From the IMG/VR virus record IMGVR_UViG_3300002895_000002, positions 64,001 to 128,000 of that record: DNA of 64,000 nucleotides; one strand, written 5' to 3'. A program made the translations under genes and the position numbers. The notes under the pieces are model-generated. The model was not told the DNA's origin and made no database searches. It saw only the letters and a list, made by a program, of their open reading frames with translations. Each line of letters begins with the position of its first letter. Positions within the stretch are counted from its first letter, which is position 1. Positions 368 through 44,358 of this stretch are shown piece by piece. This DNA comes from a virus (lineage: Duplodnaviria; Caudoviricetes).

Positions 368-379
368 GATTTCACCTCT

Positions 380-469
380 ATAAATAGATGTGACGGGGAC
401 AGTGGAGTTTCACCTCCTCCATTGGTTGTCAGTGCCACCTGCAACCTTACCCGTTCCATCCTTATTTAT
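380..469 (+). ncRNA. HEG-associated structured element, copy E0
   Basis: ATAAATA..GGGA CAGTGGAG[tttcacctc]CTCCATTG GTTG t CAG[tgccac]CTG CAAC CTTACC..TATTTAT; same architecture as four other copies. Confidence 0.7.
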
Positions 470-501
470 CAAATCCTAAGAAAATCAATGGAAATAAACC
501 A

Positions 502-681
502 ATGAATAAAGAAATGAAGATCAGATGTCAGGTTTGTGGTGAATGGATTCCAGTTCGGTACATTCATAACCACGTGGATTGGCAACACCAGGCCAACACC
601 GAATACCATAGTTACATTATGGGATTAACAGTCGAAGAGATATTAGAAAATTCAAAGAATAATTTCCAGCTCAGAATTTGA
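502..681 (+). CDS. small C2H2-like zinc-finger protein (59 aa)
   Basis: Manual translation MNKEMKIRCQVCGEWIPVRYIHNHVDWQH...; CxxC..HxxxxH spacing. Confidence 0.5.
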   Translation: MNKEMKIRCQVCGEWIPVRYIHNHVDWQHQANTEYHSYIMGLTVEEILENSKNNFQLRI

Positions 682-706
682 CAGATCCCTCTCTTCATGT
701 TACCAT
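678..706 (+). promoter_or_regulatory. sigma70-type (early) promoter upstream of folE
   Basis: TTGACA(678-683)-17 nt-TACCAT(701-706) with TGn extended -10. Confidence 0.65.
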
Positions 707-745
707 ACTTTTACATTGAACATGTGAACAAGAAAGGAACCACCA

Positions 746-1423
746 ATGGCATTTGATCCATCAAAACTCGACAAAACACTCGGCAATCAAATTCACGAAC
801 ATCTGAAGACACTCGGGATTGAAACTCCCACGACAGATCTGCTTTTGCTGGATGATGAACAGAAGATCCAGACCATTATGCCACACGTCCAAGCAATTCT
901 CGAGACTCTCGGTCTTGACCTGACCGATGACAGTCTTCAGGACACTCCGAAGCGGGTTGCGAAGATGTGGGTTCGAGAAAAGTTCTGGGGTCTGTGTCCG
1001 GGCAAGTTCCCGAAGATGATGACTATCGAGAACAAGATGAAATACCAACAGATGGTCTGTGAGAAAAACATTCGGGTCCTGTCCGACTGTGAACACCACC
1101 TGGCTCAGATCGATGGTTTCGCTCACGTCGCGTATATCTCCAACGGCAAGATTCTCGGTCTGTCCAAGCTCAACCGGATCGTTCAGTATTTCTCGGCAAG
1201 ACCCCAGGTCCAAGAGAGGATTGGCGAGCAGATCGGTGAGGCTCTCAAGTTCATCCTGGGCACAGAAGACGTCGCTGTATGCATCGAAGCTTCTCATTAC
1301 TGCGTGATTGCTCGTGGTGCAAGGGACTACGAATCTTCGACCACCACATCGTTCCTTTCCGGCGTATTCAGGGATGATCCCATGGTCCGGTCGGAGTTCT
1401 ACTCCATGGTCAACGGAAAATAA
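746..1423 (+). CDS. folE: GTP cyclohydrolase I
   Basis: DDSLQDTPKRVAKM, CEHH, GLSKLNRIVQYFSARPQVQER and H.C...RG motifs. Confidence 0.97.
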   Translation: MAFDPSKLDKTLGNQIHEHLKTLGIETPTTDLLLLDDEQKIQTIMPHVQAILETLGLDLTDDSLQDTPKRVAKMWVREKFWGLCPGKFPKMMTIENKMKYQQMVCEKNIRVLSDCEHHLAQIDGFAHVAYISNGKILGLSKLNRIVQYFSARPQVQERIGEQIGEALKFILGTEDVAVCIEASHYCVIARGARDYESSTTTSFLSGVFRDDPMVRSEFYSMVNGK

Positions 1424-1433
1424 AACCGGTATA

Positions 1434-1480
1434 AATGAGAGGTGGGTGAATTTGACATCCACCTCTCATTCTGTTACTAT
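1434..1480 (+). promoter_or_regulatory. sigma70-type promoter inside a 12-bp inverted repeat
   Basis: TTGACA(1452-1457)-17 nt-TACTAT(1475-1480); IR AATGAGAGGTGG(1434-1445)/CCACCTCTCATT(1459-1470). Confidence 0.7.
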
Positions 1481-1507
1481 AAGGTATCAAACAAAGGAAG
1501 GAACCAA

Positions 1508-2767
1508 ATGGCCAATCATCTTGAGTATGTTCTGTCTGGTGTAGGGTTTACTCGCCTCGTGGCAAAACCCCTCCAGGAAAGTGCCGAAGGTGTTGCATGG
1601 GTCAACGATATGTTCACCTCCATGCAAAGTGTCGGTGCTACCCACGGATTTTCCCTTCTGTACAACGCATGGATCGAGCATAGCTTTGGTGAGATTTTCA
1701 AGCTGTTCCGACCTGGGCTTGAAAACGTGTATGCTGACTCGGGTGGTCTTCAGATCGTTACCCAGGGTAAGGCGATCACTGAGGATATGAAGGAGAAGGT
1801 CTACTTCAACCAGGCAAACGGATCTACTAAGGCCATGTGTTTTGATGAGATCCCGGTAACAATCCTGGGTGACAAATCAACCCGGCTGGATCTCGGGTCT
1901 CGTTTCTTTGATGAGACCAAATTCATGGACTGTGCGATCCTTACCGGCAAGAATATTGCCCGGCAGATTGAGATCTTCCTGGATGAGAAAACCAAGTCCC
2001 AACCGATCCTAATCACCCAAGGTAACTGTCTCGAGACCTACATGCAGTGGACTGATCTCGTTCTCCAACAGATCCCAACGAGCCACCACAAGTATATCGG
2101 TGGTATTGCTATGGGGGCGGCGGCTCTCGGCCATGGTCAGCTCGAAGATATCAAACGGGCGTTTTATTTTACCCAGCTCCCGTTTGAGGCAGCTCATAAT
2201 CACGTTCACATCCTGGCTCTCGGATCAGTAACCAGAATCCTTCCTTACCTCATCTTCATGCAAAACGGGGTGTTTCAGGATCTGCACCTGTCATACGACT
2301 CCACCACCCACAGCTCAGGGATTCACATGGGTCGGTATTACAGCCGAAAGGGTGCAAATCTTGAGTTTGGACGGAAGATGGGCCCTGAGTGGGCTGAGAT
2401 CTACGAAGATGTTTGTGCATTGGCTGATGTCGGTCTCGACTTTGAGGAGTTTGTTCGAGTTATTAATATGCCGGCAACCGCGTACGAGAAAGAAACCGGT
2501 GATAGAGTTCCTGCGGTGAAAGCTCTTGCTGCGATGTGTTGTGCATCAGTAAAAAACTTCATTCAGCACGTGGAAAGATGTGTACAATCAAGGAAAGATG
2601 TGTTAAAATTAGCAGACAGTCGGAAGAGCTACCTGGCGTTCAAGCATTTGCATGAGGTCAAGACCCTGCAGGACTTCGTACATTGGGAGACCCAGCTTGG
2701 ACGGTTCCTTCACTCTGTCCCTGTTCAAAGCTCAAGGCCGGCAACACTCGAAAATTTCTTTGAATAA
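1508..2767 (+). CDS. tRNA-guanine transglycosylase-fold protein (DpdA-like deazaguanine DNA transglycosylase candidate)
   Basis: TGT-like DSGGLQ, FDEIP, ITQGN, GGIAMG, HILALG, SYDS motifs in order; next to folE and a QueD-like gene; start at ATG 1508 after AAGGAAGG. Confidence 0.7.
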   Translation: MANHLEYVLSGVGFTRLVAKPLQESAEGVAWVNDMFTSMQSVGATHGFSLLYNAWIEHSFGEIFKLFRPGLENVYADSGGLQIVTQGKAITEDMKEKVYFNQANGSTKAMCFDEIPVTILGDKSTRLDLGSRFFDETKFMDCAILTGKNIARQIEIFLDEKTKSQPILITQGNCLETYMQWTDLVLQQIPTSHHKYIGGIAMGAAALGHGQLEDIKRAFYFTQLPFEAAHNHVHILALGSVTRILPYLIFMQNGVFQDLHLSYDSTTHSSGIHMGRYYSRKGANLEFGRKMGPEWAEIYEDVCALADVGLDFEEFVRVINMPATAYEKETGDRVPAVKALAAMCCASVKNFIQHVERCVQSRKDVLKLADSRKSYLAFKHLHEVKTLQDFVHWETQLGRFLHSVPVQSSRPATLENFFE

Positions 2768-2780
2768 GGAGAACGAACGA

Positions 2781-3143
2781 ATGATCAAAAGGTACATTGA
2801 AGTTCAGATTGTTAAGGAAGGGTGTCACCGTTATCCAGCAGCAGAAACAGATCCAAAACTGGCTGACGTTGATTATCTAGCAAACAGACATTTTCACTAT
2901 TTCTACATCACGGTCAAGATTGAAGTATTTCATAATGATCGGTGTCTTGAATTTCAACAATTTCGTCGATATCTCGAGAAACTCTATAATCAAGGAATTC
3001 TCGAGATAGATTTCAAGTCATGTGAAATGCTCGCCGAAGACCTCATCGGAACTTTGAGCCGAACATATCCAGACCGGGATATGTCAATTCGAGTGTTTGA
3101 AGATAATATCAACGGTGCTGAATTAGTGTATACTGTTGACTAG
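2781..3143 (+). CDS. QueD-like (6-pyruvoyl/6-carboxy-tetrahydropterin synthase-like) protein
   Basis: EGCHRYP, RHFHYF, EF..F, SCEMLAEDL and VFEDNING motifs; T-fold size; RBS AAGGAG. Confidence 0.7.
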   Translation: MIKRYIEVQIVKEGCHRYPAAETDPKLADVDYLANRHFHYFYITVKIEVFHNDRCLEFQQFRRYLEKLYNQGILEIDFKSCEMLAEDLIGTLSRTYPDRDMSIRVFEDNINGAELVYTVD

Positions 3144-3917
3144 GATTGAACTGACAGTTTCTGGGTTATTGTATATTTCAGATTCTTTGAATCGAATGAC
3201 ACGATAACCCAGACTGTCAGCAATCAATTCACATTCATTATCGCGTTTTATTGTTTCTGGTTTTGAATGCCAATAATCACCATCTACTTCAACTAGGATG
3301 TTTGTATTTTTGATCAAAAAATCATAACAGTGGCGCCAATTTGAATTTTTGGTCTTTTTGAATTGGATAAGAAATTGTTGCTCATATTCTATTCCAAGAG
3401 ATGACATGATCTCAATCATTTTCCTCTCTGGTTTAGTATTGGAACCCAAACGACCGGATTTGATTAGAGAAATAACATTTCTCGACGTTGCATCTTTGTG
3501 TTTTTCCGTTCTGGTATATCGCCCAATTCTAGAATTATCACGAACAGCAGCAGATCTCTTCATTTTTTCTTTTGCATCTTCAGAATGGGTCTTTCCAAAC
3601 ATGGGATTATTTTCACCAATCGTTTTGCCCTTCTTTGCATTGGAAATATTCTCATTTCTATTCTTTACCCATTCTGGATCTTTTGATTTTTCATCTATTG
3701 ATTTTCTTGCACGTTCAGCCATTCTTTTTGCATGGCTGGATCTTTCTTCCGGGGTTGTTCTCGCTTCTCTTGATTCTTTTTGTCTTCTAATTATTTCGGG
3801 GCATTTGGTTATTGATTTTTGACATCGCTTTGTTTTTGTGTTATAACTGATGTATAGAGCAGGAAGACCACAATATGCACAGACGTCTTGTTCGGTTGGG
3901 TTCTCAATCAATGGCAT
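3123..3917 (-). CDS. homing endonuclease: NUMOD3 plus C-terminal DUF559/Vsr-like PD-(D/E)XK domain
   Basis: GENNPMFGKTHSEDAKEKM, NTKPERKM, YDFLI..LVEVDGDYWH..RD; AT-rich; converges on the QueD-like gene. Confidence 0.8.
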   Translation of the reverse strand: MPLIENPTEQDVCAYCGLPALYISYNTKTKRCQKSITKCPEIIRRQKESREARTTPEERSSHAKRMAERARKSIDEKSKDPEWVKNRNENISNAKKGKTIGENNPMFGKTHSEDAKEKMKRSAAVRDNSRIGRYTRTEKHKDATSRNVISLIKSGRLGSNTKPERKMIEIMSSLGIEYEQQFLIQFKKTKNSNWRHCYDFLIKNTNILVEVDGDYWHSKPETIKRDNECELIADSLGYRVIRFKESEIYNNPETVSSILVNSIH

Positions 3918-3980
3918 GGTAAATACTCCAGACATAAATTCATTCTATCCATCATTATTTATCAAGAAAGGCAAGAAATA

Positions 3981-5036
3981 ATGAAAAAACAGCTCTTTAT
4001 CTTCTCTCTGGAGCCATTGGAGTCCCGCTACACCAAGCAATGGTTCACTCATTTGCCGAAAGTGTTTGGCGAGAAGCTTCCTGAGTTTGAAATCATTCAG
4101 CTCAACGGAACAACGACGTCAGGAAAGCCCACGGAGGGTGCTTTCCTTGACTTCGCTGCAACCAACCTGTGGAAGAACGAGCAAATGAACCTCTTCTTTC
4201 AACGGCTGGGAGCAGGTCAGATTGATGACAATGCTGTGATCCTGTTCACTGACGCATGGAACCCGACTATCCTTGAGGTCAAGTACACCAAGGATCTACT
4301 CAAGAAGAATTGGAAGTTGGTTTCGATCTGGCACGCAGGGTCCTACATAGATGAAGACCCACTCGGTCAGCTCATTCAGGACAAGAGATGGTCCTTGGCT
4401 GCCGAGCGTTCGTTCTACGAGGCATGTGATGTCAACCTGTTCGCCAGCGTTGATCACATTCGCCGGTTTGTTCATGTTATGCCGGGTATCAATGTCAAGA
4501 AGGCACACCGGACAGGATTTCCGATGGAATATATCAGTGAGATTGAACTTCCAAAGGTTCCAAAGAAGAATCAGATTCTGTTTGGTGCTCGACTCAGTCC
4601 TGAGAAGCAACCGGATATTTTCGACGCTCTGTCTGTCCTGCTCCCTGAGTACGAGTTTGTTGCTCCCTTGAGGGATCCCAACCCAACGAAAGAAAAGTAT
4701 CACCTGGCTCTGGCGGAATCAAAGGTCGCTGTTTGGTTCTCAACTCTCGAGACCCTTGGCATAGGTCAGCATGAGGCTCTCCACGCTGGGGCGATACCGC
4801 TAGTTCCTTCCCGGTTGTGTTATCCAGAGCAGTATCCGATCAACTCACCGTTCATCTACCCAGGGGAATGGGCTCAGAATCTTGCTACATCCAATTTACC
4901 TGCGTTGGCTAAGAAGATCAAAGACCTGGTTGAGAATCACGAGAGCTACCATGAAGAAATGGCAAGTGCATATCACTTCCAGCGTGAGAATTTCTTTGGC
5001 TGTGACATTATGTGTAATATCATAAGGGGACTCTAA
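3981..5036 (+). CDS. glycosyltransferase (GT-B-like)
   Basis: LEPLESRYTKQW N-terminus; C-terminal RLSPEKQP..STLETLGIGQHEALHAGAIPLVP resembles the GT-B nucleotide-sugar motif. Confidence 0.7.
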   Translation: MKKQLFIFSLEPLESRYTKQWFTHLPKVFGEKLPEFEIIQLNGTTTSGKPTEGAFLDFAATNLWKNEQMNLFFQRLGAGQIDDNAVILFTDAWNPTILEVKYTKDLLKKNWKLVSIWHAGSYIDEDPLGQLIQDKRWSLAAERSFYEACDVNLFASVDHIRRFVHVMPGINVKKAHRTGFPMEYISEIELPKVPKKNQILFGARLSPEKQPDIFDALSVLLPEYEFVAPLRDPNPTKEKYHLALAESKVAVWFSTLETLGIGQHEALHAGAIPLVPSRLCYPEQYPINSPFIYPGEWAQNLATSNLPALAKKIKDLVENHESYHEEMASAYHFQRENFFGCDIMCNIIRGL

Positions 5037-5566: not shown

Positions 5567-5576
5567 AGGAATCAAT

Positions 5577-6116: not shown

Positions 6117-6138
6117 TTACGATGAAAGGAAAGAACGA

Positions 6139-6840: not shown

Positions 6841-6860
6841 GGAATGACATTTCGTCCATG

Positions 6861-6902
6861 ATAAATAAAGGTGCTTGGGACATAAACCCAAGCACCTTTA
6901 TT
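6861..6902 (+). promoter_or_regulatory. late promoter motif overlapping a 16-bp hairpin
   Basis: ATAAATA 6861-6867; IR AATAAAGGTGCTTGGG(6864-6879)/CCCAAGCACCTTTATT(6887-6902). Confidence 0.6.
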
Positions 6903-6919
6903 CTTATTTGAGGATAATC

Positions 6920-7378: not shown

Positions 7379-7387
7379 GAGAATAAT

Positions 7388-9181: not shown

Positions 9182-9205
9182 TCTGAGAGGAATAAATAAT
9201 ACAAG

Positions 9206-9880: not shown

Positions 9881-9886
9881 GAGAAT

Positions 9887-14970: not shown

Positions 14971-14972
14971 TC

Positions 14973-21089: not shown

Positions 21090-23525
21090 ATGAAACTGTA
21101 TGGTAACCTCAAGCTTCACGGAGGCGAGCTTCAGAACCTCAAGCTGGAAGTTCTGACAGATGATCCGACTGGCATAGGTCTGTTTGAAGGTCGTCTGTGG
21201 TACAACAGCACCGCTGATGCTATCAAGTATTATGACGGGGCTGATGTACAAATCGTTGGTGATACCGCCGAACTCCAAACTGTCATCAACAACCTCAACA
21301 CCGAGATCACCGCACGTCAGAACGCAGATACTACTCTTCAGGCTAACATTGACGCTGAAGAAACTGCTCGTGTTGCTGCCGATGCTACTCTGACTTCTAA
21401 CCTTGCTGCTGAGGTTACGAACCGCCAGAATGCAGATTCCACTCTGCAAAGCAACATCAACACCGTTCAGAGCAACCTGAACACCGAGGCAACGACTCGT
21501 CAGAATGCAGACACAACTCTTCAGGCCAATATCGACGCTGAAGCAACTACTCGCGCTGCTGCGGACACAACTCTGACCAACAACCTGAATGCAGAGATTA
21601 CTGCACGTCAAAATGCAGATTCAACGCTGCAAGCAAACATTGACGCTGAAGCAACTGCTCGTGCTGCGGCTGATTCCACATTGACATCGAACCTTGCTGC
21701 TGAGGTTACGAACCGTCAAAATGCCGACTCTACTCTCCAGGCTAACATTGACACTGAAGCAACTGCTCGTGCTGCTGCTGATACGACGTTAACCAACAGC
21801 CTGGATGCAGAGGCAACTGCTCGTGCTAATGCTGACACCACTCTCCAGGCTAACATCGATAATGAAGTCTCGGCCCGTACCGCTGCCGTTGCTCTGAAGG
21901 TAAGCAAGTCCGGCGATAGCATGAGCGGTAACCTGGCCATGGGCGGAGTTGCCAAAGTAACCGGCATGGTTGCCCCGACTGATCCGACTGATGCTGCTAC
22001 CAAAGCATACGTTGACAGTCTGGCTTCCGGTCTTGTCTGGCGTGATCCGATCGTTCTCATCAACTTCACGGGTTCTGCTTCTGCTCCGGTTGCTTCTCCT
22101 GTCAAGTACGATTCGTATGTCATCGATGTCGGCGGCGCTACTGGTGCATGGGCAGGCTTTGCTGAAGGTGATGTTGTTCAGTGCACCGATGAAGCTGGCC
22201 CGGTTTGGACCAAGGTAACCGATTTTACCGTTGGTCAGCACTATGTAATCTCCGGTATCACTGAGACCACCCCGATTGGTATTGCTGCTGGTCACCTCAC
22301 CGATTACATGACCGTAACCAATGCTGTTCCGGGTTCGTATGCAGCTACCTTTGACGAGCCTATCGAGGGCAACGCAGTGTTCGTTGGTGATCCGGGTGCC
22401 GCTCTGTTCGGCCGTTCATACACCTATGCCGCTTCTACCGCTGCACCGACCGGCAACCCGACCCATACCTGGATTCAGTTCGGCGGTCCGGGTGCTACTG
22501 GCGCAGGCGTTGGTCTGTACTACGAAGGCAACGTTCTTCACGTCAACCTCGGTGCTGGTATTGCTCAGCTCCCGACTGACGAAGTTGGTATCGACCTGTA
22601 TGCAACTGGCGGTCTTGAACTGGTTGATCCGGGTACCGGTCTTCCGTCGAATGCTTCGGATGCAGTTCTTGCTATCAATGCAGCTGATACATCCATCACT
22701 GTAGACGGCAATGGTATCAAACTTGCTACTACGCTTCAGACGGCAATCTCTTCCAACACTTCTGCCATTGCTGCTGAGACGACTGCTCGTCAGAATGCCG
22801 ATACCACACTGCAGGCTAACATCGACGCTGAAGCAACTGCTCGCATTGCAGCAGACAGCACTCTCCAGGCAAACATCGATGCTGAAGCTACCACAAGGGC
22901 AGCAGCTGATACGACATTGACCAACAACCTCAATGCAGAGATCACGGCACGTCAGAACGCAGACAGTACGCTCCAAGCTAACATCGATGCAGAGGTAACG
23001 GCAAGGACCGGTGCAGATACCACCCTTACTAACAACCTCAACGCTGAGATCACTGCACGTACCAACGCTGACACTACGCTCCAGGCTAACATTGATGCTG
23101 AAGCAACTGCTCGTGCCAACGCTGATACGACACTGACCAACAATCTCAACGCTGAGATCACTGCCAGGACGAATGCTGATACGACTCTCCAGGCTAACAT
23201 CGATGCAGAGGCAACCGCAAGAGCCAATGCTGATACGACGCTCCAAGCCAATATCGATGCTGAAGCAACTGCTCGTGCTAACGCCGACACAACGCTCCAG
23301 ACCAACATCGATGCATGTGCCAAGCGTTATCAGTTCACTGCCGGCGCTGCGAACACCTCGTTCACCATCAACCACAACCTCGGTTACAAGTATGTCAACG
23401 TAACTGTATACGACTCGGTTGACGACGAAGTTATCATCCCGAACAGCATCCAGGCAATCAGCACCAACAGCCTAACAATCACCTTTACCTCCGCTGTTCA
23501 ACCGATCGTCAAGATCGTTGCCTAA
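21090..23525 (+). CDS. long coiled-coil fibre protein with 18-aa repeats
   Basis: Repeats of the type EATARANADTTLQANIDA in two blocks; DAATKAYVD motif; C-terminal INHNLG module. Confidence 0.8.
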   Translation: MKLYGNLKLHGGELQNLKLEVLTDDPTGIGLFEGRLWYNSTADAIKYYDGADVQIVGDTAELQTVINNLNTEITARQNADTTLQANIDAEETARVAADATLTSNLAAEVTNRQNADSTLQSNINTVQSNLNTEATTRQNADTTLQANIDAEATTRAAADTTLTNNLNAEITARQNADSTLQANIDAEATARAAADSTLTSNLAAEVTNRQNADSTLQANIDTEATARAAADTTLTNSLDAEATARANADTTLQANIDNEVSARTAAVALKVSKSGDSMSGNLAMGGVAKVTGMVAPTDPTDAATKAYVDSLASGLVWRDPIVLINFTGSASAPVASPVKYDSYVIDVGGATGAWAGFAEGDVVQCTDEAGPVWTKVTDFTVGQHYVISGITETTPIGIAAGHLTDYMTVTNAVPGSYAATFDEPIEGNAVFVGDPGAALFGRSYTYAASTAAPTGNPTHTWIQFGGPGATGAGVGLYYEGNVLHVNLGAGIAQLPTDEVGIDLYATGGLELVDPGTGLPSNASDAVLAINAADTSITVDGNGIKLATTLQTAISSNTSAIAAETTARQNADTTLQANIDAEATARIAADSTLQANIDAEATTRAAADTTLTNNLNAEITARQNADSTLQANIDAEVTARTGADTTLTNNLNAEITARTNADTTLQANIDAEATARANADTTLTNNLNAEITARTNADTTLQANIDAEATARANADTTLQANIDAEATARANADTTLQTNIDACAKRYQFTAGAANTSFTINHNLGYKYVNVTVYDSVDDEVIIPNSIQAISTNSLTITFTSAVQPIVKIVA

Positions 23526-33656: not shown

Positions 33657-34424
33657 TTAGGGCCTCTCTGATTTAGATTTTCTCTTTTCCCAAGAGTTCT
33701 TTATTGCCTGTTTATGAGATTCTGATTTTTTCTTTCCTGTATGAATTTCTGATAATTTTTTCTTTGTTTCTTCGGACATTGGCTTTCGATTTTTTGCTGC
33801 TTTTTTCATTTTTTGTTTCGTTTCTTCGGACACTGGCTTTCGATTTTTTGCTGCTTCTTTCATTTTTTGTTTCGTTTCTTCGGAATGTTCTTTACGGGGT
33901 TTCCCTTTGTGGCTTTCACTTAAATTGTTTTTGTGTTCTTCAGAAAAGAGTCTACCTTTTAATGACTTAGAAATTTTGGCCCGATGTTCACTTGTAAATT
34001 TTCTGTCTTTGAGCGTATTTTTTATTTTTTGTTTTCGCTCATTATCAAGTAAAGAACCCAATAATTTGCCTTTATTTGAATTTCCAATTTTTTGTTTGGT
34101 TTCTTCTGAATGATTGTAGTTTAGGTTCAACCATTTATAATCTTTAGAGGTATATTTTCCATTATTTGACATATAGGAAAATGCTCTAGTCATTTTCGGC
34201 CCCTTGATTTTATGTCCTCTCCATATACGGGCAAGAAGTAGATGAGCAATGAAGTGCTCACGAAGGGGAAGATTTACTCTGTTCCAGGATCCATCAATAT
34301 CATCTATTCCGTCGATTTTTGCAAATGAACGAGGAATGATGTGGTGATCCTCTGTTTGTTTCTTTACTTTTGGGGTGTTACGATTACGTTCGATAATGCG
34401 GTTATAGATTGTTTGATAATCCAT
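33657..34424 (-). CDS. HNH homing endonuclease with NUMOD3 repeats
   Basis: EDHHIIPRS..N.V.L..REHFIAHLLL; HSEETKQK repeats. Confidence 0.88.
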   Translation of the reverse strand: MDYQTIYNRIIERNRNTPKVKKQTEDHHIIPRSFAKIDGIDDIDGSWNRVNLPLREHFIAHLLLARIWRGHKIKGPKMTRAFSYMSNNGKYTSKDYKWLNLNYNHSEETKQKIGNSNKGKLLGSLLDNERKQKIKNTLKDRKFTSEHRAKISKSLKGRLFSEEHKNNLSESHKGKPRKEHSEETKQKMKEAAKNRKPVSEETKQKMKKAAKNRKPMSEETKKKLSEIHTGKKKSESHKQAIKNSWEKRKSKSERP

Positions 34425-34484
34425 ATAAATACCTTTAGAGAAGTTTTTAACTATCAAACTTATTTATCTACATCGGAGAAAATT

Positions 34485-36128: not shown

Positions 36129-36137
36129 GAGATAGAG

Positions 36138-36461: not shown

Positions 36462-36463
36462 AT

Positions 36464-36492
36464 TTGACTTTTCCTTTCCTTGGTTGTATAAT
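36464..36492 (+). promoter_or_regulatory. sigma70-type promoter
   Basis: TTGACT-17 nt-TATAAT. Confidence 0.7.
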
Positions 36493-36495
36493 GAA

Positions 36496-37126
36496 CTAAA
36501 TGGATAGTTTACGTTTCAGATGTGCAAGTCTCATTTTTTCTTTGGTTTCAGGTGAATGTGTTTTTCCTTTCATGCCTTTTGGATGCCCATTTTTTAAACT
36601 ATCCTTTATTTTTTGGCAATGCTCTAATGAAAGTTTTTTACCTTTCTTTTCTGAAGGTTTTCCTTTGTTGGCTTTACTCATGATGTCTTTAATTTCATCA
36701 GCACGGTCAGGGCTCATTTCTTCTAAAGTACGTCCTTTACGCGCTGATGGTTTTCCTTTATGCCATTTTCCTCCACGTGCGCTTGATTCTCTAAGTCGCT
36801 CTTTGGTTTTTTCATCGGCAAATTGATACGTATTGCCGCCATTACCACCAGGAACTAAGTTATAGGTGTCTTTTCTGGAAATAAACCATTCATCAACTAT
36901 TTGTTTTTCTATTTCTAACGCATGTTCAGCTGATATACAGTAATGAAGAATAATTCTGACGAAGTTTTCTTTTCCATATTTCTTTACTGCTTTGACTATG
37001 TTTCTACCAGAACCAATATAACCGTCATCAATGCGATTAGTTGACCTTTTTTCCAACATAGATTTTGCTGTTTATTAAATTGGTGGTAAGATAAACAAAA
37101 TGAAATGACTTTTCTTCATGTGCCAT
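36496..37126 (-). pseudogene. GIY-YIG/NUMOD3 homing endonuclease split by a frameshift
   Basis: ATG 37126 gives MAHEEKSFHFVYLTTNLINSKIYVGK, then stops; the domain continues (RSTNRIDDGYIGSG) in another frame after an A6 run at 37047-37052. Confidence 0.8.
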
Positions 37127-37143
37127 GACGGTCTCCTATAACC

Positions 37144-37227
37144 ATAAATAGAGTTGACAGGGACAACAGTTTCCTAGCTGCTGGTTGTCGTTGGCAGACG
37201 CAACCTTACCCGTTCAATACTATTTAT
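37144..37227 (+). ncRNA. HEG-associated structured element, copy E1
   Basis: ATAAATA..GGGA CAACAGT[ttccta]GCTGCTG GTTG t CGTT[ggca]GACG CAAC CTTACC..TATTTAT. Confidence 0.7.
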
Positions 37228-37243
37228 AAACTAAGGAAAGAAA

Positions 37244-37972
37244 ATGATAAGTTTACCAAATGAATTACGATTTTCTCCCTACAGTCACAGCAAGATGTCA
37301 CTCTTCTATGAGTGTCCTCACAAGTGGTACCATACATACATCACGAAATCCATGCCGCGTGAACAGAAAGCCGCGTTTGAGAAAGGCGGCTTCATTCACT
37401 ACGCTCTGGATCATTACCCCAACCCCACCCCGAAGAAATACACGTTCAAACTCGCCAGTAATGAAATGCAAGAGGAATGGGTTGATCTTCTCAAAACCAT
37501 CCTTCAGCAGCCTCGAGTCAGAACTATCATCAAGAACAAGATTAACAGTGAATTTACCTGGATCTTGGATCACAACTTCACTCTCGGAACAAACAAGTGG
37601 AAATCGTTAATCTACGGGGTTGTTGACGGAATGACACAGACAGGAAACCGGCTCTGTCTGTACTACTGGAAGACCGGTAAGTCCGATGGCGATAGTGACC
37701 AACTCAAACTCTATGCTCTCTGGGCAATGATTGCTCGTCCCAACCTGAAAGAAGTCCTTTGCAGTTTTGAATATGTGGAGCGAAACACTTTCGATGAATT
37801 CCGGTACGACCAGAGCCAAGTCCCGGAAATGAAAGAATGGCTCTATGAGAAGATATCAAACATAGAAAACGCAACAGAATTTAGTCCAACTCCGTGCAAA
37901 GGATGTTCTTACTGTCCGAAATACACAGTATGTCCGGCACATAAGATCACAATACCTATTTCACGCGGTTGA
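37244..37972 (+). CDS. PD-(D/E)XK RecB/Cas4-like nuclease with Fe-S cysteines
   Basis: SHSKMSLFYECP, G..IH..L, GVVD, WKTG, QLKLYA, CSYC..VC; expected catalytic Asp reads Tyr. Confidence 0.8.
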   Translation: MISLPNELRFSPYSHSKMSLFYECPHKWYHTYITKSMPREQKAAFEKGGFIHYALDHYPNPTPKKYTFKLASNEMQEEWVDLLKTILQQPRVRTIIKNKINSEFTWILDHNFTLGTNKWKSLIYGVVDGMTQTGNRLCLYYWKTGKSDGDSDQLKLYALWAMIARPNLKEVLCSFEYVERNTFDEFRYDQSQVPEMKEWLYEKISNIENATEFSPTPCKGCSYCPKYTVCPAHKITIPISRG

Positions 37973-38639
37973 TATGTGATTGTCTGATTTTATTTTTGGT
38001 TTCTTCCGATCTGGCTCTACCTAATAATGAGTCCCGAATTTTTTGTTTGGTTTCTTCTGAACATTTTCTTCCAGTGTTCACTTCTAATAATTTTGCTCTA
38101 TGTGATTCTGATATAGGTTTACCTTTTCTTGATTTACTCATATTTTCTTTATGTTCATCAGAAAATATTATACCTTTTCTAGACTCACTTATTTTTCTCT
38201 TGGTTTCTTCTGATCTGGGTTTAGAATTTTTACCTTTCATTGCTTTGCTTCTTTTATCAATATGCTCTTTTGATTGTTTTCTGCCTTTTTGAGATTTGCT
38301 CATTTTTATTATTGTAGCTGACGAATGTTTGTAACCTAACTTTAGCCAAGAATAATCTTTGGATGTATATTTTCCATTATTTGACATATAGGAAAAGGCT
38401 CTAGCCATCTTCGGACCTTTCACTTTATGACCTCGCCATATACGAGCAAGAAGCAGATGGGCAATGAAGTGCTCACGTAAAGGAAGATTAACTCGATTCC
38501 ATCGTCCATCGATATCATCTATTCCATCAAGTTTAGCAAAGGACCTAGGGATGATGTGGTGATTTTCAGTTTGCTTTTTGATCTTGGGGGTGGTACAATT
38601 GCGTTCGATGATACGGTTGTAAATTGATTGATAATCCAT
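37956..38639 (-). CDS. HNH homing endonuclease with NUMOD3 repeats (paralog of 33657-34424)
   Basis: ENHHIIPRS..REHFIAHLLL; near-identical N-terminal ~95 aa to the paralog. Confidence 0.88.
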   Translation of the reverse strand: MDYQSIYNRIIERNCTTPKIKKQTENHHIIPRSFAKLDGIDDIDGRWNRVNLPLREHFIAHLLLARIWRGHKVKGPKMARAFSYMSNNGKYTSKDYSWLKLGYKHSSATIIKMSKSQKGRKQSKEHIDKRSKAMKGKNSKPRSEETKRKISESRKGIIFSDEHKENMSKSRKGKPISESHRAKLLEVNTGRKCSEETKQKIRDSLLGRARSEETKNKIRQSHINRVK

Positions 38640-38658
38640 AGACGGTTTCTCCTAACCG

Positions 38659-38745
38659 ATAAATAAGAGTAGAACAGGGACAGCGGTTTCTCCACCGTTG
38701 AGTTTCAGGGCCAACTGAACTCTTACCTGTTTCATGTTTATTTAT
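38659..38745 (+). ncRNA. HEG-associated structured element, copy E2
   Basis: ATAAATA..GGGA CAGCGGT[ttctcc]ACCGTTG AGTT t CAG[ggccaa]CTG AACT CTTACC..TATTTAT. Confidence 0.7.
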
Positions 38746-38769
38746 ATTTTAACAGAAAGGAATAAGACA

Positions 38770-39147
38770 ATGGCTGAGAAATTTGAAGTAGTAGCTCCGA
38801 ACGGGAAGGATATCACCTTCTCTGACATGAAAGGCCGTAAAACCTATGCTCATGGCGAGCAGATTGAGATGAATTCTTTCGTTGCTATGTTCCCGGGATT
38901 CTTCAAGCGAGTTGAAGATGCAGTCAAGGAAGTAGTTGCTGATGCCAAGGAAGCGGTCGAGGAGATCGTGGAGAAGGTTGAGGAGCAGATCGAGGAGATC
39001 AAGGAAGAGGTGGCTGAGGCCGTCGAGACCGCTGAGGAAGTAGTGGAAGCGGTTGTCGAAGAGGTGAAGGAAGCCGCCGCCGAGATCGAAGAGAAGGTCG
39101 AAGGGATCGTCGAAAAGAAAACGGCTGGTAAGAAGGGCAAAAAATAA
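38770..39147 (+). CDS. acidic low-complexity protein
   Basis: Glu/Ala/Val-rich helix with Lys-rich tail; RBS AAGGA. Confidence 0.6.
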   Translation: MAEKFEVVAPNGKDITFSDMKGRKTYAHGEQIEMNSFVAMFPGFFKRVEDAVKEVVADAKEAVEEIVEKVEEQIEEIKEEVAEAVETAEEVVEAVVEEVKEAAAEIEEKVEGIVEKKTAGKKGKK

Positions 39148-39157
39148 GAGGTGACTC

Positions 39158-39922
39158 ATGGCCCTTCCGGTCCGGATCAAGAAAAAGTCAGAGCTGGTTG
39201 ATTACATTCTCCGCAAGCTGGGTTCCCCTGCTGTCAACGTAGAATTAACCAACGAGCACCTCGACGACGCAATTGAGGATACGCTCGAGGAATTCCTTCC
39301 TCGAGCTTATTCCGGCACACTCGAACGGTATGTTCAACTCCAGCTCATAAAGGATCAGCAAGATTACAGACTTCCTGATTCTGTTTTTGCTGTTCTCGGT
39401 GTGTTCAACAACAACATCGGTGACTATACTGTCTCCTCCACTGATATGTTCTCTGCCAACCAGTACATCGCCGCAGACATCTTTGGCGGGAACCTAAAGA
39501 ACGTTGACCTGCTTACCTATACAATGACCCAGCAGTTTATTGAAACGATGGGTTTGATCTTTGGTAAGCGGATCACGTTTGACTTTAACTCCAACACCAG
39601 AATCCTTCACCTTCATGAGCCGCCGAAGAGCAACATATTCACAGTAATGCACTTCTACATGTTCCTTGAGCGTGACGAAGATCCATTAACTCAGGACGAA
39701 CTCACGAACATCTACGATAACAAGTGGGTCAAAAGGATGGCGGTTGAGATGGCTCGGTATCAATGGGGTGTGAACCTCATGAAGTACAATGGCACAGTCC
39801 TTCCGAACGGGATGAATCTCAATGCTGGTGGCATCCTGGATATGGCAGAGAAGAATAAAGAGAAACTGATGGAAGAACTCCATAACGAATGGTCTTTACC
39901 TACCGACTTCTACATCGGGTGA
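39158..39922 (+). CDS. gp13: neck protein gp13
   Basis: ELVDYILRKLGSPAVNVEL, WVK.MA..QWG.NL.KY....LP.G..LN and LP.DFYIG motifs. Confidence 0.9.
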   Translation: MALPVRIKKKSELVDYILRKLGSPAVNVELTNEHLDDAIEDTLEEFLPRAYSGTLERYVQLQLIKDQQDYRLPDSVFAVLGVFNNNIGDYTVSSTDMFSANQYIAADIFGGNLKNVDLLTYTMTQQFIETMGLIFGKRITFDFNSNTRILHLHEPPKSNIFTVMHFYMFLERDEDPLTQDELTNIYDNKWVKRMAVEMARYQWGVNLMKYNGTVLPNGMNLNAGGILDMAEKNKEKLMEELHNEWSLPTDFYIG

Positions 39923-39985
39923 ATGTAGGTTTCCGGTTGATTTTTTACCTTTCTTGATAAATAGTATTACAAGAAAGGAAATATC

Positions 39986-41101
39986 ATGCGAGACTTTATT
40001 CTCAGCACTTTTATCACCAAACGAGGAACTTGTGATAGTTCAAAAATAAATCTTCTCTCAAATTATCATGATGACCTAGTTGAACTTGTTCCTGGGTGTG
40101 ATGGTGATGATAAAGAACGATTGTTTTGGTTATCGAGAGGGATAACAGAAGCTCCGGTTTGCAAAACTTGTGGTGGAAAAACAAAGTGGAAAGGGCTCTT
40201 TACTGTTGGAAAGAAGAGCTCTTATCCACTTTTCTGTTCTCCTGCTTGTAGAGCAAAAGATCCAGATGTTACCGAAAAACTCAAGGACTCTCAGTCAAAT
40301 CTCTATCAAGATGAAATGTTAGCAGTTTCTAATAAAGATGAATTGATAGAAATAATCAAACGTCGTTATTATAATGGCAGCAAAACAAATGGCAACTTCC
40401 TTCGTGCTCTCACTCCAAATATAAAAAGTCTACTCAATACTCTTACTCCAAAACTCAAATCTAACGACTACAAAGAAAAGATCTATTGGGTGATGAACGG
40501 ATTTGAAGACTACCCAAATTGGTGTTCGTGTGGCAACCCAATCACTCAGTTTAGAAAAGAATATAAGTGGAAGTTCTGTTCTAACAAATGCAAAGCAAAT
40601 GATCCTGATTTCCAAAAACAAAGAATCGAAACAACAACCTCACGATATGGGACTTCAAATAACAATGCAAAAACCAAACAAACAAACATAAAGAAGTATG
40701 GTGTTGAAAACGTATCACAAATCCCAGCGGTAGCTGATAAGATACTCAAAAATGGACACAGAAAGAAAGTATACACATTTCCTTCTGGAAGAAAAGTATT
40801 CGTTCAAGGATACGAGCCCCAAGCAATCGATGAATTGTTGAAAACATATAATGAAGATGATATTGTTCTTGATCGAAAACAAATACCAACATTTTGGTGG
40901 AACGACAAAACAGGAAAGAAGCACAGATATTTCCCTGATATATTCATCCCAAAAGACAATCTGGTAGTTGAAGTAAAGAGTAAGTGGACCTATGACTCTG
41001 CAAAAGATGTAAATGAGCGAAAGTTCGAACGTGTTCGGGAATCTACCTACAACTTTCGTTTGATGATACTTGATAAATACCAATGGAGGATTCTACCATG
41101 A
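39986..41101 (+). CDS. putative homing endonuclease (Zn-ribbon repeats plus C-terminal PD-(D/E)XK domain)
   Basis: CKTCG/CSPAC/CSCG/CSNKC, KKYGVENVSQ, VQGYE, YFPDIFIP..VVEVKS; AT-rich. Confidence 0.75.
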   Translation: MRDFILSTFITKRGTCDSSKINLLSNYHDDLVELVPGCDGDDKERLFWLSRGITEAPVCKTCGGKTKWKGLFTVGKKSSYPLFCSPACRAKDPDVTEKLKDSQSNLYQDEMLAVSNKDELIEIIKRRYYNGSKTNGNFLRALTPNIKSLLNTLTPKLKSNDYKEKIYWVMNGFEDYPNWCSCGNPITQFRKEYKWKFCSNKCKANDPDFQKQRIETTTSRYGTSNNNAKTKQTNIKKYGVENVSQIPAVADKILKNGHRKKVYTFPSGRKVFVQGYEPQAIDELLKTYNEDDIVLDRKQIPTFWWNDKTGKKHRYFPDIFIPKDNLVVEVKSKWTYDSAKDVNERKFERVRESTYNFRLMILDKYQWRILP

Positions 41102-41535
41102 ACAAATTCATAGATATGCTCGAAACAGCTCCACAAGTCAATAAGAAACTTGCTGACAGTCAGGCCAAGATTGCTCAGCGAATCCGTATCCAGAAGGAAC
41201 GGGAAGCTCAGATCAAAGCAATGACCATGCAGGAATCTGAGGACTTTGATCAGTATCTTTCGTCCATTGACTCTGTGATCTATGAGAACGCTGCTGTTCA
41301 TCCTGAAGGTGGGGCAGTTCGGGATGGTGGTCGTTTTGTTCTGAGTCATCATGTCATAAAGACGGATCCCTATCTCTTCGGCATGGACACGGACGAGCAC
41401 AAGCGATTCATTTCGAAGGCAGGGACCAAAGGCGATGCAAAAGTAACAATGCATGCTCCTGGGTTCTACGATCTGTATTTTGACGATGGTGACATTGTTC
41501 CAGCAATATCCGGTCATTTCGTTAAGCCGGCATAA
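41098..41535 (+). CDS. hypothetical protein, candidate head-internal protein
   Basis: MNKFIDMLE start; RBS GGAGG. Confidence 0.6.
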   Translation: MNKFIDMLETAPQVNKKLADSQAKIAQRIRIQKEREAQIKAMTMQESEDFDQYLSSIDSVIYENAAVHPEGGAVRDGGRFVLSHHVIKTDPYLFGMDTDEHKRFISKAGTKGDAKVTMHAPGFYDLYFDDGDIVPAISGHFVKPA

Positions 41536-41556
41536 TATACCAAGGAGAAATCAAAC

Positions 41557-42123
41557 ATGAGTAAAATGGATCTGTATCTCAAAGGTCTCGATGGTCTTGC
41601 TACAGTGATCGGTGCTGCCCTGGTTGTTGAGAGCAAAGAAGAAGTAAAAGAAGAGCCGACAGTCATCGAAGAGAGTGTTGAGGAAGAATACCTCTGTGAA
41701 GGCATCAAATCTTCCTCACTCAAGAAGGGTGATCGGGTGATGATGAAGGACAAGTATGAAGAGATTCCGGTTGAAATTCTCGGGTTCTCTCATCACTCCG
41801 CTAAGTATGGTGATCATAGCAAATATGACGCCAAACACGACCCGGAAGGCAAGTTCAAAGGCAAGGACTTTGAATCCCATAAGGAAATGTTGGATCACTA
41901 CGGAGTAAAGAGCCTCAAGGACCTCGAGCAACACGAAGACATCAAGAAAGCGGAGTATGGTCATCACCCATACATGAAACTCAAAGCCCATGAGAACGGA
42001 AACTCGTACGACTTCAACGCATACCCGTATAAGGGTCGGTGGAATGTTGGTACTAGCGCTGACAGCATTTCCTTCCGTAAGATGACCCCGGAAGAGGAAG
42101 AGAAGCATTTCGGTAGTAAGTAA
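41557..42123 (+). CDS. hypothetical protein, acidic propeptide-like N-terminus
   Basis: RBS AAGGAG; E-rich leader ending in LCE. Confidence 0.65.
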   Translation: MSKMDLYLKGLDGLATVIGAALVVESKEEVKEEPTVIEESVEEEYLCEGIKSSSLKKGDRVMMKDKYEEIPVEILGFSHHSAKYGDHSKYDAKHDPEGKFKGKDFESHKEMLDHYGVKSLKDLEQHEDIKKAEYGHHPYMKLKAHENGNSYDFNAYPYKGRWNVGTSADSISFRKMTPEEEEKHFGSK

Positions 42124-42138
42124 CCTATACCGCTTAGA

Positions 42139-42852
42139 TCATTTCCAGAAAAGAAACGCGACTAGTCCAATAAGGGCGGATTCACGTTGTTCCGCCCTTC
42201 GTTGTTTTATTATTTTGGACATGTATGCTTTGTGTTCATCTGAGTGGATGTGTTTACCCTTATTTGCTTCACTTATTTTTCGACAATGCTCCTCAGACCT
42301 CTGGGGTTTTGGTACTCCCCTCAATGAATCGGAAATCTTACGTTTGGTTTCGTTGGATAATGTCTTACCAGTTTGTGCTCTGGAATTTTTTGCTCTCTCT
42401 TCCACACTCACAACTCGACCAGATAGAGATTTACTTCTTTTCTCTCGAGTTTCGTTGCTTATAGATGTTGCTGCTATCCTTTTCTTGGCTCTGGTTTCTT
42501 CTGATGGGTTACGATTAGCATCTCCTATCTTCTGACGGTGTTCTTTAGAAGGGGACCTTCCTTTTCTATTGGGTGGTCTATATCCACCAGGCGTTAGGTT
42601 ATAAACATCTGTTCTGGAAAGAAATGATCTATCCACAATCCAAGACTCAATCTCATAAGCCTCTTCCTCGTTTCTGGCTAGATGAAGGATGTGTCGTTGG
42701 AAATTATTCTTTCCATACTTTTTGATGGCTTTGAGGATGTTATCTCCCGAACCCAGATATGAATCCTTGAGTCGATTAGCGGAATGGACGCCGACGTAGA
42801 TTTTGCCGTTGATAAGATTGTGAGTGAGGTAGATAAAGTGATACAGTTTCAT
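42139..42852 (-). CDS. GIY-YIG homing endonuclease with NUMOD3 repeats
   Basis: FIYLTHNLINGKIYVGVH..YLGSG..YNL; start ATG 42852 after GGAG. Confidence 0.9.
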   Translation of the reverse strand: MKLYHFIYLTHNLINGKIYVGVHSANRLKDSYLGSGDNILKAIKKYGKNNFQRHILHLARNEEEAYEIESWIVDRSFLSRTDVYNLTPGGYRPPNRKGRSPSKEHRQKIGDANRNPSEETRAKKRIAATSISNETREKRSKSLSGRVVSVEERAKNSRAQTGKTLSNETKRKISDSLRGVPKPQRSEEHCRKISEANKGKHIHSDEHKAYMSKIIKQRRAEQRESALIGLVAFLFWK

Positions 42853-42862
42853 GGTGACTCCG

Positions 42863-42948
42863 ATAAATAGATGTGACAGGGACATCGGGAGTGACTCCCT
42901 TCCGTTGAGTCTCAGCTGCAACTGGACTCTTACCTGTCTATTATTTAT
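42863..42948 (+). ncRNA. HEG-associated structured element, copy E3
   Basis: ATAAATA..GGGA CATCGG[gagtgactccctt]CCGTTG AGTC t CAG[ctgcaa]CTG GACT CTTACC..TATTTAT. Confidence 0.7.
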
Positions 42949-42964
42949 AATACCTGGATAGAAA

Positions 42965-43639
42965 ATGCCAATACCAACATTCAACAGACAGACGACGGTT
43001 TTTAAGTTCAATGAACGTTATGCACCAGACCAAGGTGAAGCTCATTTATATCATACAATCTTGTGCGAGGCCGTTTGGAAGCACGGAACTGATGTTATTT
43101 TCATTCCCCGGGTCATCTCGGGGATTGAGAAAATCTTTGGAGAGTACCTTGCTCCTGTTCTGGAGAAAGGACATCCGTTCCGGATGTTTGTTGATGAGGT
43201 AGAGAACTGGAACGGGACTGGTGACATGTATTCCCGCTTTGGTCTCAAGGTTCAAGATTCGATGACCTGCTGGCTCCCCATCGATAGCTTCCGGGAACAG
43301 AACCCAGATGGTAGTGATGGGGAGTTGCTTTTCCCTCAGCACAATGACCTCTTATACCACGTGCCGTCCAAGAAGCTCTTTGAGATCACTCACGTGGAAA
43401 ATGAGAGTCACCCAAGTTTCTATCTGTTTGGAAACCTCCGTTGCTATAAGTTTACCACCACTCTGTACTCTTACAACCACGAAGAAGTGGTTGACGATGC
43501 ATCGCTCCCTGAAGGGCTGTTTGAGCTTAGCCAGCAAGCTGAGCCCCAAGATTTTGATCGAAACAATCAGCGGTATCAGGATAGAACAGTAACAGAGCAA
43601 ACGTTGGACAAAACTGAGAAAAATCCAATTTTTGAGTAG
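42965..43639 (+). CDS. gp14: neck protein gp14
   Basis: E....HG.DV.FIPR, FG..., GD.YSRFG..VQD, DLLY....KLFEI.HVE...FY..G motifs. Confidence 0.9.
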   Translation: MPIPTFNRQTTVFKFNERYAPDQGEAHLYHTILCEAVWKHGTDVIFIPRVISGIEKIFGEYLAPVLEKGHPFRMFVDEVENWNGTGDMYSRFGLKVQDSMTCWLPIDSFREQNPDGSDGELLFPQHNDLLYHVPSKKLFEITHVENESHPSFYLFGNLRCYKFTTTLYSYNHEEVVDDASLPEGLFELSQQAEPQDFDRNNQRYQDRTVTEQTLDKTEKNPIFE

Positions 43640-44259
43640 CTATTTCTTATATTTGCAGTTATCACCATGCCATCTCTTTATCAATGAGGGGATGGCTTCT
43701 TTTTTGCAATAAGGACATATAGCATTTGGTCTATTTCTTATAGACTCACTCATCTTCTGTTTGCTTTCTTCAGTGTGGGTCCACCCAGTATAAGGTGTTC
43801 GTTGTTTTGCTTTTTCGCTTATTATCTTTTTTGATTCATCCGAATGTTTCCACCCAGTATAAGGTGTTCGTTGTTTTGCTTTCTCACTCATTATCTTCTT
43901 TGAGTCGACTGAGTGTTTTTGCCCCTTTCTTCTCAATGCTCTTTTTTCTACATGTTCTTTTGATTGTTTTTCCCTTTTTGATTTGGTGGTCGACGACCAC
44001 CCGGGACAAGATTATAGGTGTCTTTTCTCTTTATAAAAGAATTGTCAACCATCCAAGATTCAAACTCGTAAGCTTCCTCTTCATTCCTACCGATAAAAAG
44101 AATGGTTCTTTTGAATTGATCTTTTCCATACTTTTTGATCGCAGGAAGTAATAAAAACCCAGATCCCAAGTATGAATCTTCAAACGAATCAGACGAATGA
44201 ACACCAACATAAATCATATTGTTTATAAGGTTCTGAGTAAGATAGACGAAGTGATACAC
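43640..44259 (-). pseudogene. GIY-YIG/NUMOD3 homing endonuclease split by a frameshift
   Basis: GTG 44259: VYHFVYLTQNLINNMIYVGVH..YLGSG; frame breaks at an A5 run (43967-43971); the other frame continues KQSKEHVEKRA. Confidence 0.8.
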
Positions 44260-44276
44260 GAATGTCTCCTGATGAC

Positions 44277-44358
44277 ATAAATAGGATTGTGGGGACAGCA
44301 GTTTCCTGGACTGTTGGTGTTCGTTGCCCGACGACACCTTACCCACAATCCTATTTAT
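44277..44358 (+). ncRNA. HEG-associated structured element, copy E4
   Basis: Perfect 17-bp terminal IR ATAAATAGGATTGTGGG/CCCACAATCCTATTTAT; core GGGA CAGCAGT[ttcctgg]ACTGTTG GTGT t CGTT[gccc]GACG ACAC CTTACC. Confidence 0.72.

Follow-up and report, generated by a model that had tools for sequence, protein, structure and literature searches.

Homing endonucleases are, to our knowledge, the commonest selfish genes of large phages, and how a single phage genome tolerates a dozen or more homing endonuclease genes (HEGs) is only partly understood. This question arises at five places in the stretch of DNA analyzed here, a window of 64,000 nucleotides (nt) comprising bases 64001 to 128000 of the 213-kb virus record IMGVR_UViG_3300002895_000002. 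At each of these loci, designated E0 to E4, a minus-strand HEG begins next to a small plus-strand element that folds into a three-way junction between two late-promoter motifs, and one loop of the junction repeats the Shine-Dalgarno (SD) region of the adjacent HEG. Does the RNA of this element regulate its neighbor? An earlier reading of the window, made from the sequence only, had suggested as much, picturing a constant scaffold with an individually tuned guide that silences a toxic nuclease. Our analysis leads us to favor, with moderate confidence, the view that the plus-strand RNA would act as an antisense repressor of HEG translation, combining a fixed scaffold with a tunable loop.

Loop and ribosome-binding region

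The five pairs of loop and site in the window occur exactly where the sequence-only reading had placed them, three being identical and two differing by a single C-to-T change. At E0, the 9-nt loop of stem P2 (positions 408 to 416) is identical to positions 370 to 378 (TTTCACCTC, or GAGGUGAAA in the sense of the mRNA), which hold the SD sequence and spacer of the HEG, lie 2 nt from its start codon, and abut the plus-strand promoter; the loop is thus antisense to the SD region of the HEG. The words are likewise identical at E2 (site 38643 to 38652, CGGTTTCTCC; loop 38684 to 38693) and at E3, where the start codon is 1 nt from the site (site 42854 to 42861, GTGACTCC; loop 42891 to 42898). The single differences at E1 (site 37131 to 37138, GTCTCCTA; loop 37169 to 37176, GTTTCCTA) and E4 (site 44264 to 44271, GTCTCCTG; loop 44301 to 44308, GTTTCCTG) become U.G wobbles in the proposed orientation, as had been claimed. 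Except for GAGGUGAAA, these words are given on the plus strand; the two copies are 37 to 41 nt apart in E0 to E4, and the site sits between the HEG start codon and the late-promoter core ATAAATA.

This cognate relation recurs at all 16 copies of the element in the genome and at 32 loci in other contigs, with the P2 loop repeating 6 to 11 nt of the interval between the HEG start codon and the plus-strand promoter. The external loci were obtained by pattern scans of viral and metagenomic contigs followed by filtering with a covariance model, and the statistics on loop and site cover the resulting 48 unique nuclease-adjacent loci. The longest shared word averages 7.71 nt for cognate pairs versus 4.88 nt for noncognate pairs (z = 16.5; 0 of 50,000 permutations). 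The difference persists in the 32 external loci alone (7.81 versus 4.92 nt; z = 12.9; 0 of 20,000 permutations) and when one locus is taken per distinct word (33 loci; 7.42 versus 4.78 nt; z = 13.7; 0 of 20,000 permutations). Predicted duplex energies follow the same pattern, at -13.6 kcal/mol for cognate and -8.1 kcal/mol for noncognate pairs (0 of 20,000 permutations). Each loop is therefore matched individually to the ribosome-binding region of its own HEG, as the sequence-only reading had held for the window.

The signal is confined to a single comparison. When all exact words of at least 7 nt shared between the element and its flanks are considered, there is essentially one relation, which is upstream, direct, and located in the P2 loop. 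Seven control comparisons, in which P2 was inverted or set against the downstream flank or P3 was set against either flank (direct and inverted where applicable), yielded no cognate signal, with z at most 1.2; inverted matches to the upstream flank, for example, gave z = -0.2 for P2 and z = 1.2 for P3. Two candidate functions were rejected on these grounds: action of the loop in cis on the downstream gene (z = 0.0 for a cognate inverted match on that side) and use of the P3 loop as a second guide (no signal).

The matched word ends mostly 1 to 7 nt from the start codon, with a mode of 4 to 5 nt, and usually abuts the plus-strand promoter, so that it consists of the SD sequence plus the spacer, including bases that the ribosome does not read. 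In the plus-strand RNA the word is predicted to be 81% unpaired. Loop and site also change together in further homologues, as the sequence-only reading requires, both across the 48 loci and between close relatives: CCCCT has become CCCTT at both places when the copies at genome positions 61320 and 143188 are compared with that at 206402, and CTCAC has become CTCTC at both places when loci L208 and L215 are compared with L196. Internal mismatches are mostly of a loop T over a site C (6 w, 1 v, and 1 other), a combination that forms a U.G pair in the proposed duplex and that, on the other strand, destroys the SD core of the loop copy.

Could the repeat instead lack any RNA function and be a by-product at the level of DNA, for example, of the joining of different nuclease genes to one common promoter cassette through microhomology? 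The element does shuffle as a module. Together with a downstream 59-amino-acid (aa) CxxC...H open reading frame (ORF; plus strand, 502 to 681), the E0 element (388 to 681 including the ORF) recurs identically at genome positions 50932 to 51230 (L118), where the 59-aa ORF is a paralog and the adjoining GIY-YIG gene is a different one; element and small ORF thus seem to travel as a unit, independently of the nuclease gene. But shuffling does not account for 38 distinct words among the 48 loci, nor for the parallel changes at both places in close relatives. The two copies of the word, at their spacing of 37 to 41 nt, have no flanking homology for conversion, the word falls exactly in the exposed loop of a covarying RNA, and in a relic copy without a nuclease gene the P2 stem is decaying. 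We regard a purely DNA-level origin as very unlikely.

Other accounts of the repeat were tried and rejected. A target-site duplication is not indicated, the roughly 30 nt between the repeats being half promoter and half RNA rather than a mobile unit. Nor is the site part of an SD hairpin within the nuclease mRNA: it generally has no complementary partner there, and a local hairpin occurs only in the TTCACCTC lineage.

Fold, strand, and facing promoter motifs

The element is a three-way-junction RNA of about 60 to 65 nt, found in 12 copies in the 213-kb genome by a simple pattern and in 16 by a covariance model. Its 6-bp outer stem, P1, is followed by the first junction strand (GAC), by P2 (5 to 8 bp, with a loop mostly of 8 to 10 nt), by P3 (segments of 5 and 3 bp separated by a bulged U and capped by a 6-nt loop), and by the second junction strand (UUA), after which the return strand of P1 closes the structure. 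Independent ViennaRNA folds of E0 to E4 gave the same junction in 5 of 5 cases. Compensatory changes occur at 13 of 19 pairs in an alignment of 12 copies and at 17 of 19 pairs in an alignment of 44 copies from this genome and other contigs, in which 95.7% of cells are paired; none of 500 shuffles matched this pairing, and slid controls reached 37 to 52%. At the junction, GGGAC(A) and CUUACC show little or no variation, even in very divergent copies. One genomic copy (21287 to 21358) has no plus-strand ATAAATA and carries CTAACC in place of CTTACC; it keeps an 8-nt match of loop and site and adjoins an intact HNH gene of 311 aa.

Within the alignment, G.U pairs outnumber A.C pairs by 64 to 10, and one G.U pair in P2 is kept in 34 of 44 sequences. 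This excess indicates that the selected fold is that of the plus-strand RNA, which is antisense to the nuclease genes, and bears out the constant scaffold of the sequence-only reading as one that covaries as RNA on that strand. The orientation is uniform: all 16 genomic elements are on the plus strand, all 16 partner genes are on the minus strand, and every copy lies directly to the right of the start of its partner. Rfam 15, which includes C4, RNA-OUT, SymR, Sok, ribozymes, and group I introns, gave no match at gathering score anywhere in the window, and a permissive Rfam search of 37050 to 44500 (E up to 5) returned three irrelevant matches, none of them at an element.

The junction is flanked by motifs resembling the late promoters of T4. 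The core (N)ATAAATA precedes it in 15 of 16 genomic copies, and TATTTAT(A/C), the same motif on the minus strand, follows it in all 16. Whereas plus-strand ATAAATA is common in the genome (83 occurrences versus 28 expected), only 23 occurrences are on the minus strand, and 16 of these flank the 16 elements. Given the spacing of T4 late promoters, both starts are predicted to fall at the outermost P1 pair, with the promoters facing each other, and each transcript would therefore begin with the junction or its mirror image. The possibility that the outer ATAAATA and TATTTAT merely extend P1 was rejected, since the spacers are noncomplementary and both motifs are at promoter distance from P1. With no terminator found after the junction, the plus-strand RNA would probably form the leader of whichever gene comes next, and the genes that follow the elements include those for a PD-(D/E)XK nuclease, the neck protein, and gp15, as well as small ORFs. 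Behind three cassettes elsewhere in the genome there is a sigma70-like promoter, which suggests that the plus-strand late promoter serves more than the feeding of a late gene.

The existence of a promoter on each side raises the possibility that the functional RNA is the 5' untranslated region (UTR) of the minus-strand nuclease mRNA, whose mirror-image junction would expose a second SD sequence as a standby site, a decoy, or a switch. All 16 elements have the minus-strand late motif, a nuclease mRNA begun at its predicted start would open with the mirror junction, and the minus strand folds into a three-way junction of similar energy. Against this, the conserved G.U pairs become A.C pairs on the minus strand (64 versus 10), the identity of loop and site extends to spacer bases unread by the ribosome, and the SD core has disappeared from the loop copy of several lineages (GGAG to GGAA or GAAG) through exactly the change that preserves a U.G pair in the antisense reading. 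The minus-strand RNA also has no SD-complementary sequence with which a decoy could compete. The sequence-only reading had offered a decoy within the HEG 5' UTR as its alternative; this evidence disfavors it, and we consider a function of the minus-strand leader unlikely.

Under antisense repression, the cassette would be read, in order, as a minus-strand nuclease gene, its SD sequence and spacer, a plus-strand late promoter, the junction of about 60 to 65 nt, and a minus-strand late promoter. The plus-strand promoter would yield an RNA with the three-way junction at its 5' end, which would double as leader for the phage gene behind it. In this RNA the junction would hold the P2 loop open, and its 8 to 10 nt would form a Watson-Crick or wobble complement to the SD sequence plus spacer in the nuclease mRNA made from the facing promoter. 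Such pairing would block binding of the 30S subunit and keep a potentially harmful nuclease at a low level, and the antisense overlap of about 65 nt between the two 5' ends may also permit cleavage of the duplex. Since specificity would reside only in the loop, one scaffold could serve nucleases of unrelated families.

Pairing of the loop with the nuclease mRNA could have a different outcome, with the junction recruiting an RNase or an RNA-binding protein or with the contact activating or timing expression. GGGAC(A), CUUACC, and the junction-adjacent G.U pair are conserved beyond the needs of a passive scaffold, as recruitment would predict. However, the word covers the SD sequence and spacer, which is what a plain translational block needs, and no candidate partner protein was identified; we judge these outcomes rather unlikely. 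It is also a speculative and rather improbable extension that the junction is a programmable scaffold, bringing a phage or host factor to whatever target of 8 to 11 nt the loop specifies, and that the cassettes form "immunity groups" silencing co-infecting rivals that share the word.

Several observations count against antisense repression. Whole-element folding energies are alike on the two strands and fail to separate them, so that the call of strand rests on the pair counts, and the wobble asymmetry of the mismatches represents only about five independent events. Transcription of both RNAs is predicted from the promoter motifs; public sequencing runs were looked up for transcripts, and none was listed. 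A terminator after the junction was looked for and none was found, which implies that the regulator would be the 5' leader of the downstream gene, or a piece processed from it, rather than a discrete small RNA. A nuclease mRNA that starts at the facing promoter would already be fully complementary to the plus-strand leader over about 65 nt, and the SD contact then looks partly redundant; our conjecture is that the contact of loop and SD is the fast and decisive one between two stably folded RNAs. Finally, of some 22 apparently real minus-strand genes in the genome, 16 carry the element, and about six other minus-strand genes have a facing late promoter and no junction, indicating that the RNA is not indispensable.

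The cassettes in the window and beyond

The source phage is a deep-branching T4-like myovirus that encodes a T4-type neck protein and a gp15-like protein, the latter with at most 31% identity to that of any cultured phage. Four of the partners in the window are GIY-YIG proteins (LEM-3-like at E0 and SegE-type at E1, E3, and E4) and one, at E2, is a Mob-like HNH protein; those seen in full carry NUMOD3 repeats. Elsewhere in the genome the partner gene is truncated at two copies, and intact partner proteins measure 157 to 311 aa in this genome and up to 388 aa in others.

At E0, the HEG (minus strand, 2 to 367; GTG start at 365 to 367) leaves the window and encodes 259 aa in the genome. The plus-strand late-promoter motif (379 to 386, TATAAATA) has a predicted start about 6 nt downstream, on the first base of P1. 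The junction RNA (392 to 455) comprises P1 (392 to 397 with 450 to 455), GAC (398 to 400), P2 (401 to 407 with 417 to 423), P3 (424 to 432 with 439 to 446, T429 being bulged), and TTA (447 to 449), and the start predicted from the minus-strand motif (463 to 470, TATTTATC on the plus strand and GATAAATA on the minus strand) is the other terminal base of P1. Behind the cassette, the sequence reads as a GTP cyclohydrolase I-like gene (746 to 1423), a hint that the phage may have a pathway for modified bases.

The E1 HEG (minus strand, 36496 to 37126; ATG at 37124 to 37126) is frameshifted in an A-run near 37040 to 37060, its second frame spanning 36496 to 37059. It is followed by the plus-strand core ATAAATA (37144 to 37150), the junction RNA (37156 to 37214), and the minus-strand motif (37221 to 37228, TATTTATA on the plus strand). 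Downstream lies the gene for a PD-(D/E)XK nuclease (plus strand, 37244 to 37972), of which the E1 element is the predicted 5' leader. At E2, the HEG (minus strand, 37956 to 38639; 227 aa) is succeeded by the plus-strand core (38659 to 38665), the junction RNA (38673 to 38731), and the minus-strand core (38739 to 38745, TATTTAT on the plus strand).

The remaining two loci adjoin structural genes. E3 has an HEG of 237 aa (minus strand, 42139 to 42852), a plus-strand core (42863 to 42869), a junction RNA (42875 to 42938), and a minus-strand core (42943 to 42949), with the gene for the neck protein (plus strand, 42965 to 43639) downstream. The E4 HEG (minus strand, 43640 to 44259; GTG start at 44257 to 44259) is split by an A-run frameshift into 43948 to 44259 and 43640 to 43936; beyond it are the plus-strand core (44277 to 44283), the junction RNA (44288 to 44347), the minus-strand core (44352 to 44358), and the gene for a gp15-like tail sheath stabilizer (plus strand, 44375 to 45190). 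A strong terminator-like hairpin (plus strand, 43669 to 43696) is embedded in the 3'-terminal part of the E4 HEG, 30 nt past the stop codon of the neck gene, and would protect the HEG against antisense transcripts reading through from that gene. The frameshifts in E1 and E4 represent either decay or errors of assembly in homopolymers; the match of loop and site is intact at both loci despite them.

Two further minus-strand genes in the window have late motifs and no junction. For an HNH HEG (33657 to 34470; start at 34421 to 34423), a plus-strand ATAAATA and a minus-strand late motif face each other across about 27 nt, so that the locus looks like a bare version of the cassette. The other gene, Cys-rich and 270 aa long (3123 to 3965), has the minus-strand late motif TTATTTATC near 3957 to 3965.

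The partners at the 32 external loci, which are in other uncultured phages and metagenomic contigs, include GIY-YIG proteins, HNH proteins with NUMOD3, proteins with a C-terminal HNH domain, DUF559 (Vsr-like) proteins, DUF7487 proteins with a C2H2 finger, and proteins without a Pfam match. The minus-strand promoter motif is present at most of these loci, although two of the three search patterns did not require it. Relatives among cultured phages were sought in several ways: megablast of 8.8 kb detected no close relative, BLAST of two elements against cultured phages gave nothing real, and the covariance model had no match in Vibrio phage SRILMA, Dickeya phage LIMEstone1, Aeh1, or KVP40. A search with the neck protein for relatives with empty sites did not find any.

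Some copies stand without a nuclease gene. At L132 (2862 to 2925, minus strand), L218 (731 to 794), and L228 (8743 to 8806) the nuclease gene is lost and the element kept, directly after the upstream gene and with a mismatch in the P2 stem; these copies are nearly identical to the nuclease-linked ones of L003, L226, and L234 and are probably relics of the loss of the nuclease gene. A weaker match (27.6 bits) shared by L076 (2153 to 2220, minus strand) and L131 (542 to 609, minus strand) also has no nuclease gene; with TTGACA-17-TATAAT in front of it and a U-run behind P1, it resembles an independent small RNA that makes use of this scaffold. Comparable copies, likewise without a nuclease gene, occur at L004 (6095 to 6157 and 6682 to 6735), L030 (6011 to 6075), and L074 (8582 to 8648), the weaker matches being in ordinary intergenic regions and having short P2 loops. 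Such copies, among them the one with the sigma70-like promoter and U-run, hint at a further use of the scaffold, as an independent small RNA with other targets.

Comparison with known systems

Among T-even phages, HEGs are known to be controlled by hairpins within the mRNA and by autorepression, the leader hairpins of I-TevI, I-TevII, I-TevIII, segB, and mobE having embedded late promoters (PMC2988022). As in those leaders, RNA structure at the ribosome-binding site combines here with late promoters to hold down HEG translation, if our interpretation is right. In T-even phages, however, hairpins in the same mRNA sequester the SD sequence on early and middle transcripts, whereas here the complement belongs to the opposite strand, and the copy within the nuclease mRNA is identical rather than complementary; the predicted fold of the minus-strand leader leaves the SD sequence about half unpaired.

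If true, the mechanism would be a third and portable control of HEGs, in which one RNA scaffold, carried with its promoters as a plug-in cassette, is re-aimed by about nine loop bases. Across many uncultured T4-like phages, the cassette would serve nucleases from at least four families that are unrelated to one another, and repression would reduce the burden that a selfish nuclease imposes when it is expressed late in infection. The 38 natural pairs of loop and target would form a ready table of specificities for short loop-to-SD discrimination, and the cassette a compact design for orthogonal translational repressors; both should interest those who work on phages, mobile elements, or RNA.

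T4-type phages are known to carry mobile regulatory cassettes of another kind, called PeSL (PMC2839356, PMC4122927). PeSL and the present cassettes are both repeated intergenic modules of promoter and structure that apparently shuffle as such, but PeSL pair an early (sigma70-type) promoter with a terminator stem-loop and have no target-matched loop, whereas the present cassettes have two facing late-type ATAAATA promoters, a three-way junction with a cognate loop, and no terminator after the junction.

Closer parallels are found among antisense RNAs. Type I toxin-antitoxin pairs with divergent antitoxin RNAs include tisB/istR-1, zorO/orzO, and shoB/ohsC. The sequence-only reading had called the present arrangement type I antitoxin-like, and in geometry it is: the two genes are on opposite strands, a short direct repeat in the DNA provides limited complementarity in the 5' region of the target, and the product of the target is potentially harmful. 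The likeness does not extend to the targets, which in type I systems are small membrane peptides (usually of fewer than 60 aa) and here are nucleases of 160 to 390 aa. In addition, the present promoter motifs face each other, the RNAs would overlap, and one scaffold is common to many cassettes with the loop alone varying.

In the RNA-OUT/RNA-IN pair of IS10, a folded antisense RNA limits the mobile element's own enzyme. Here, too, a stable folded antisense RNA would be made from a promoter facing that of the enzyme, and a loop would make the first contact with the ribosome-binding region; facing late motifs of this type are present on the plus side of 15 of our 16 elements and on the minus side of all 16, the starts being predicted. 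The overlap in IS10 covers the start region, but the predicted start of the plus-strand RNA is about 15 to 25 nt short of the SD sequence, which leaves the start region outside the overlap; the SD sequence would be reached only by a separate, noncontiguous copy in the loop.

The c4 antisense RNA of phages P1 and P7 (immI), reportedly described by Citron and Schuster in 1990 and with its role summarized in PMC8198154, offers the third comparison. It is similar in that a small structured phage RNA exposes loops complementary to a ribosome-binding region outside its own gene and in that specificity shifts by matched substitutions in loop and target. But c4 shares a strand and a transcript with its target, from which it is processed, and what it controls is the antirepressor of a temperate phage, whereas here regulator and target are on opposite strands with facing late-promoter motifs, the fold is a three-way junction, the putative targets are homing endonucleases, and Rfam gives no match. 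No description of the element was found in the literature that we searched. It would work most like c4 RNA of P1 and P7, the divergent type I antitoxin RNAs, and RNA-OUT of IS10 and is a member of none of them; we regard it as a new family of RNAs and, by its proposed function, as a new form of antisense control.

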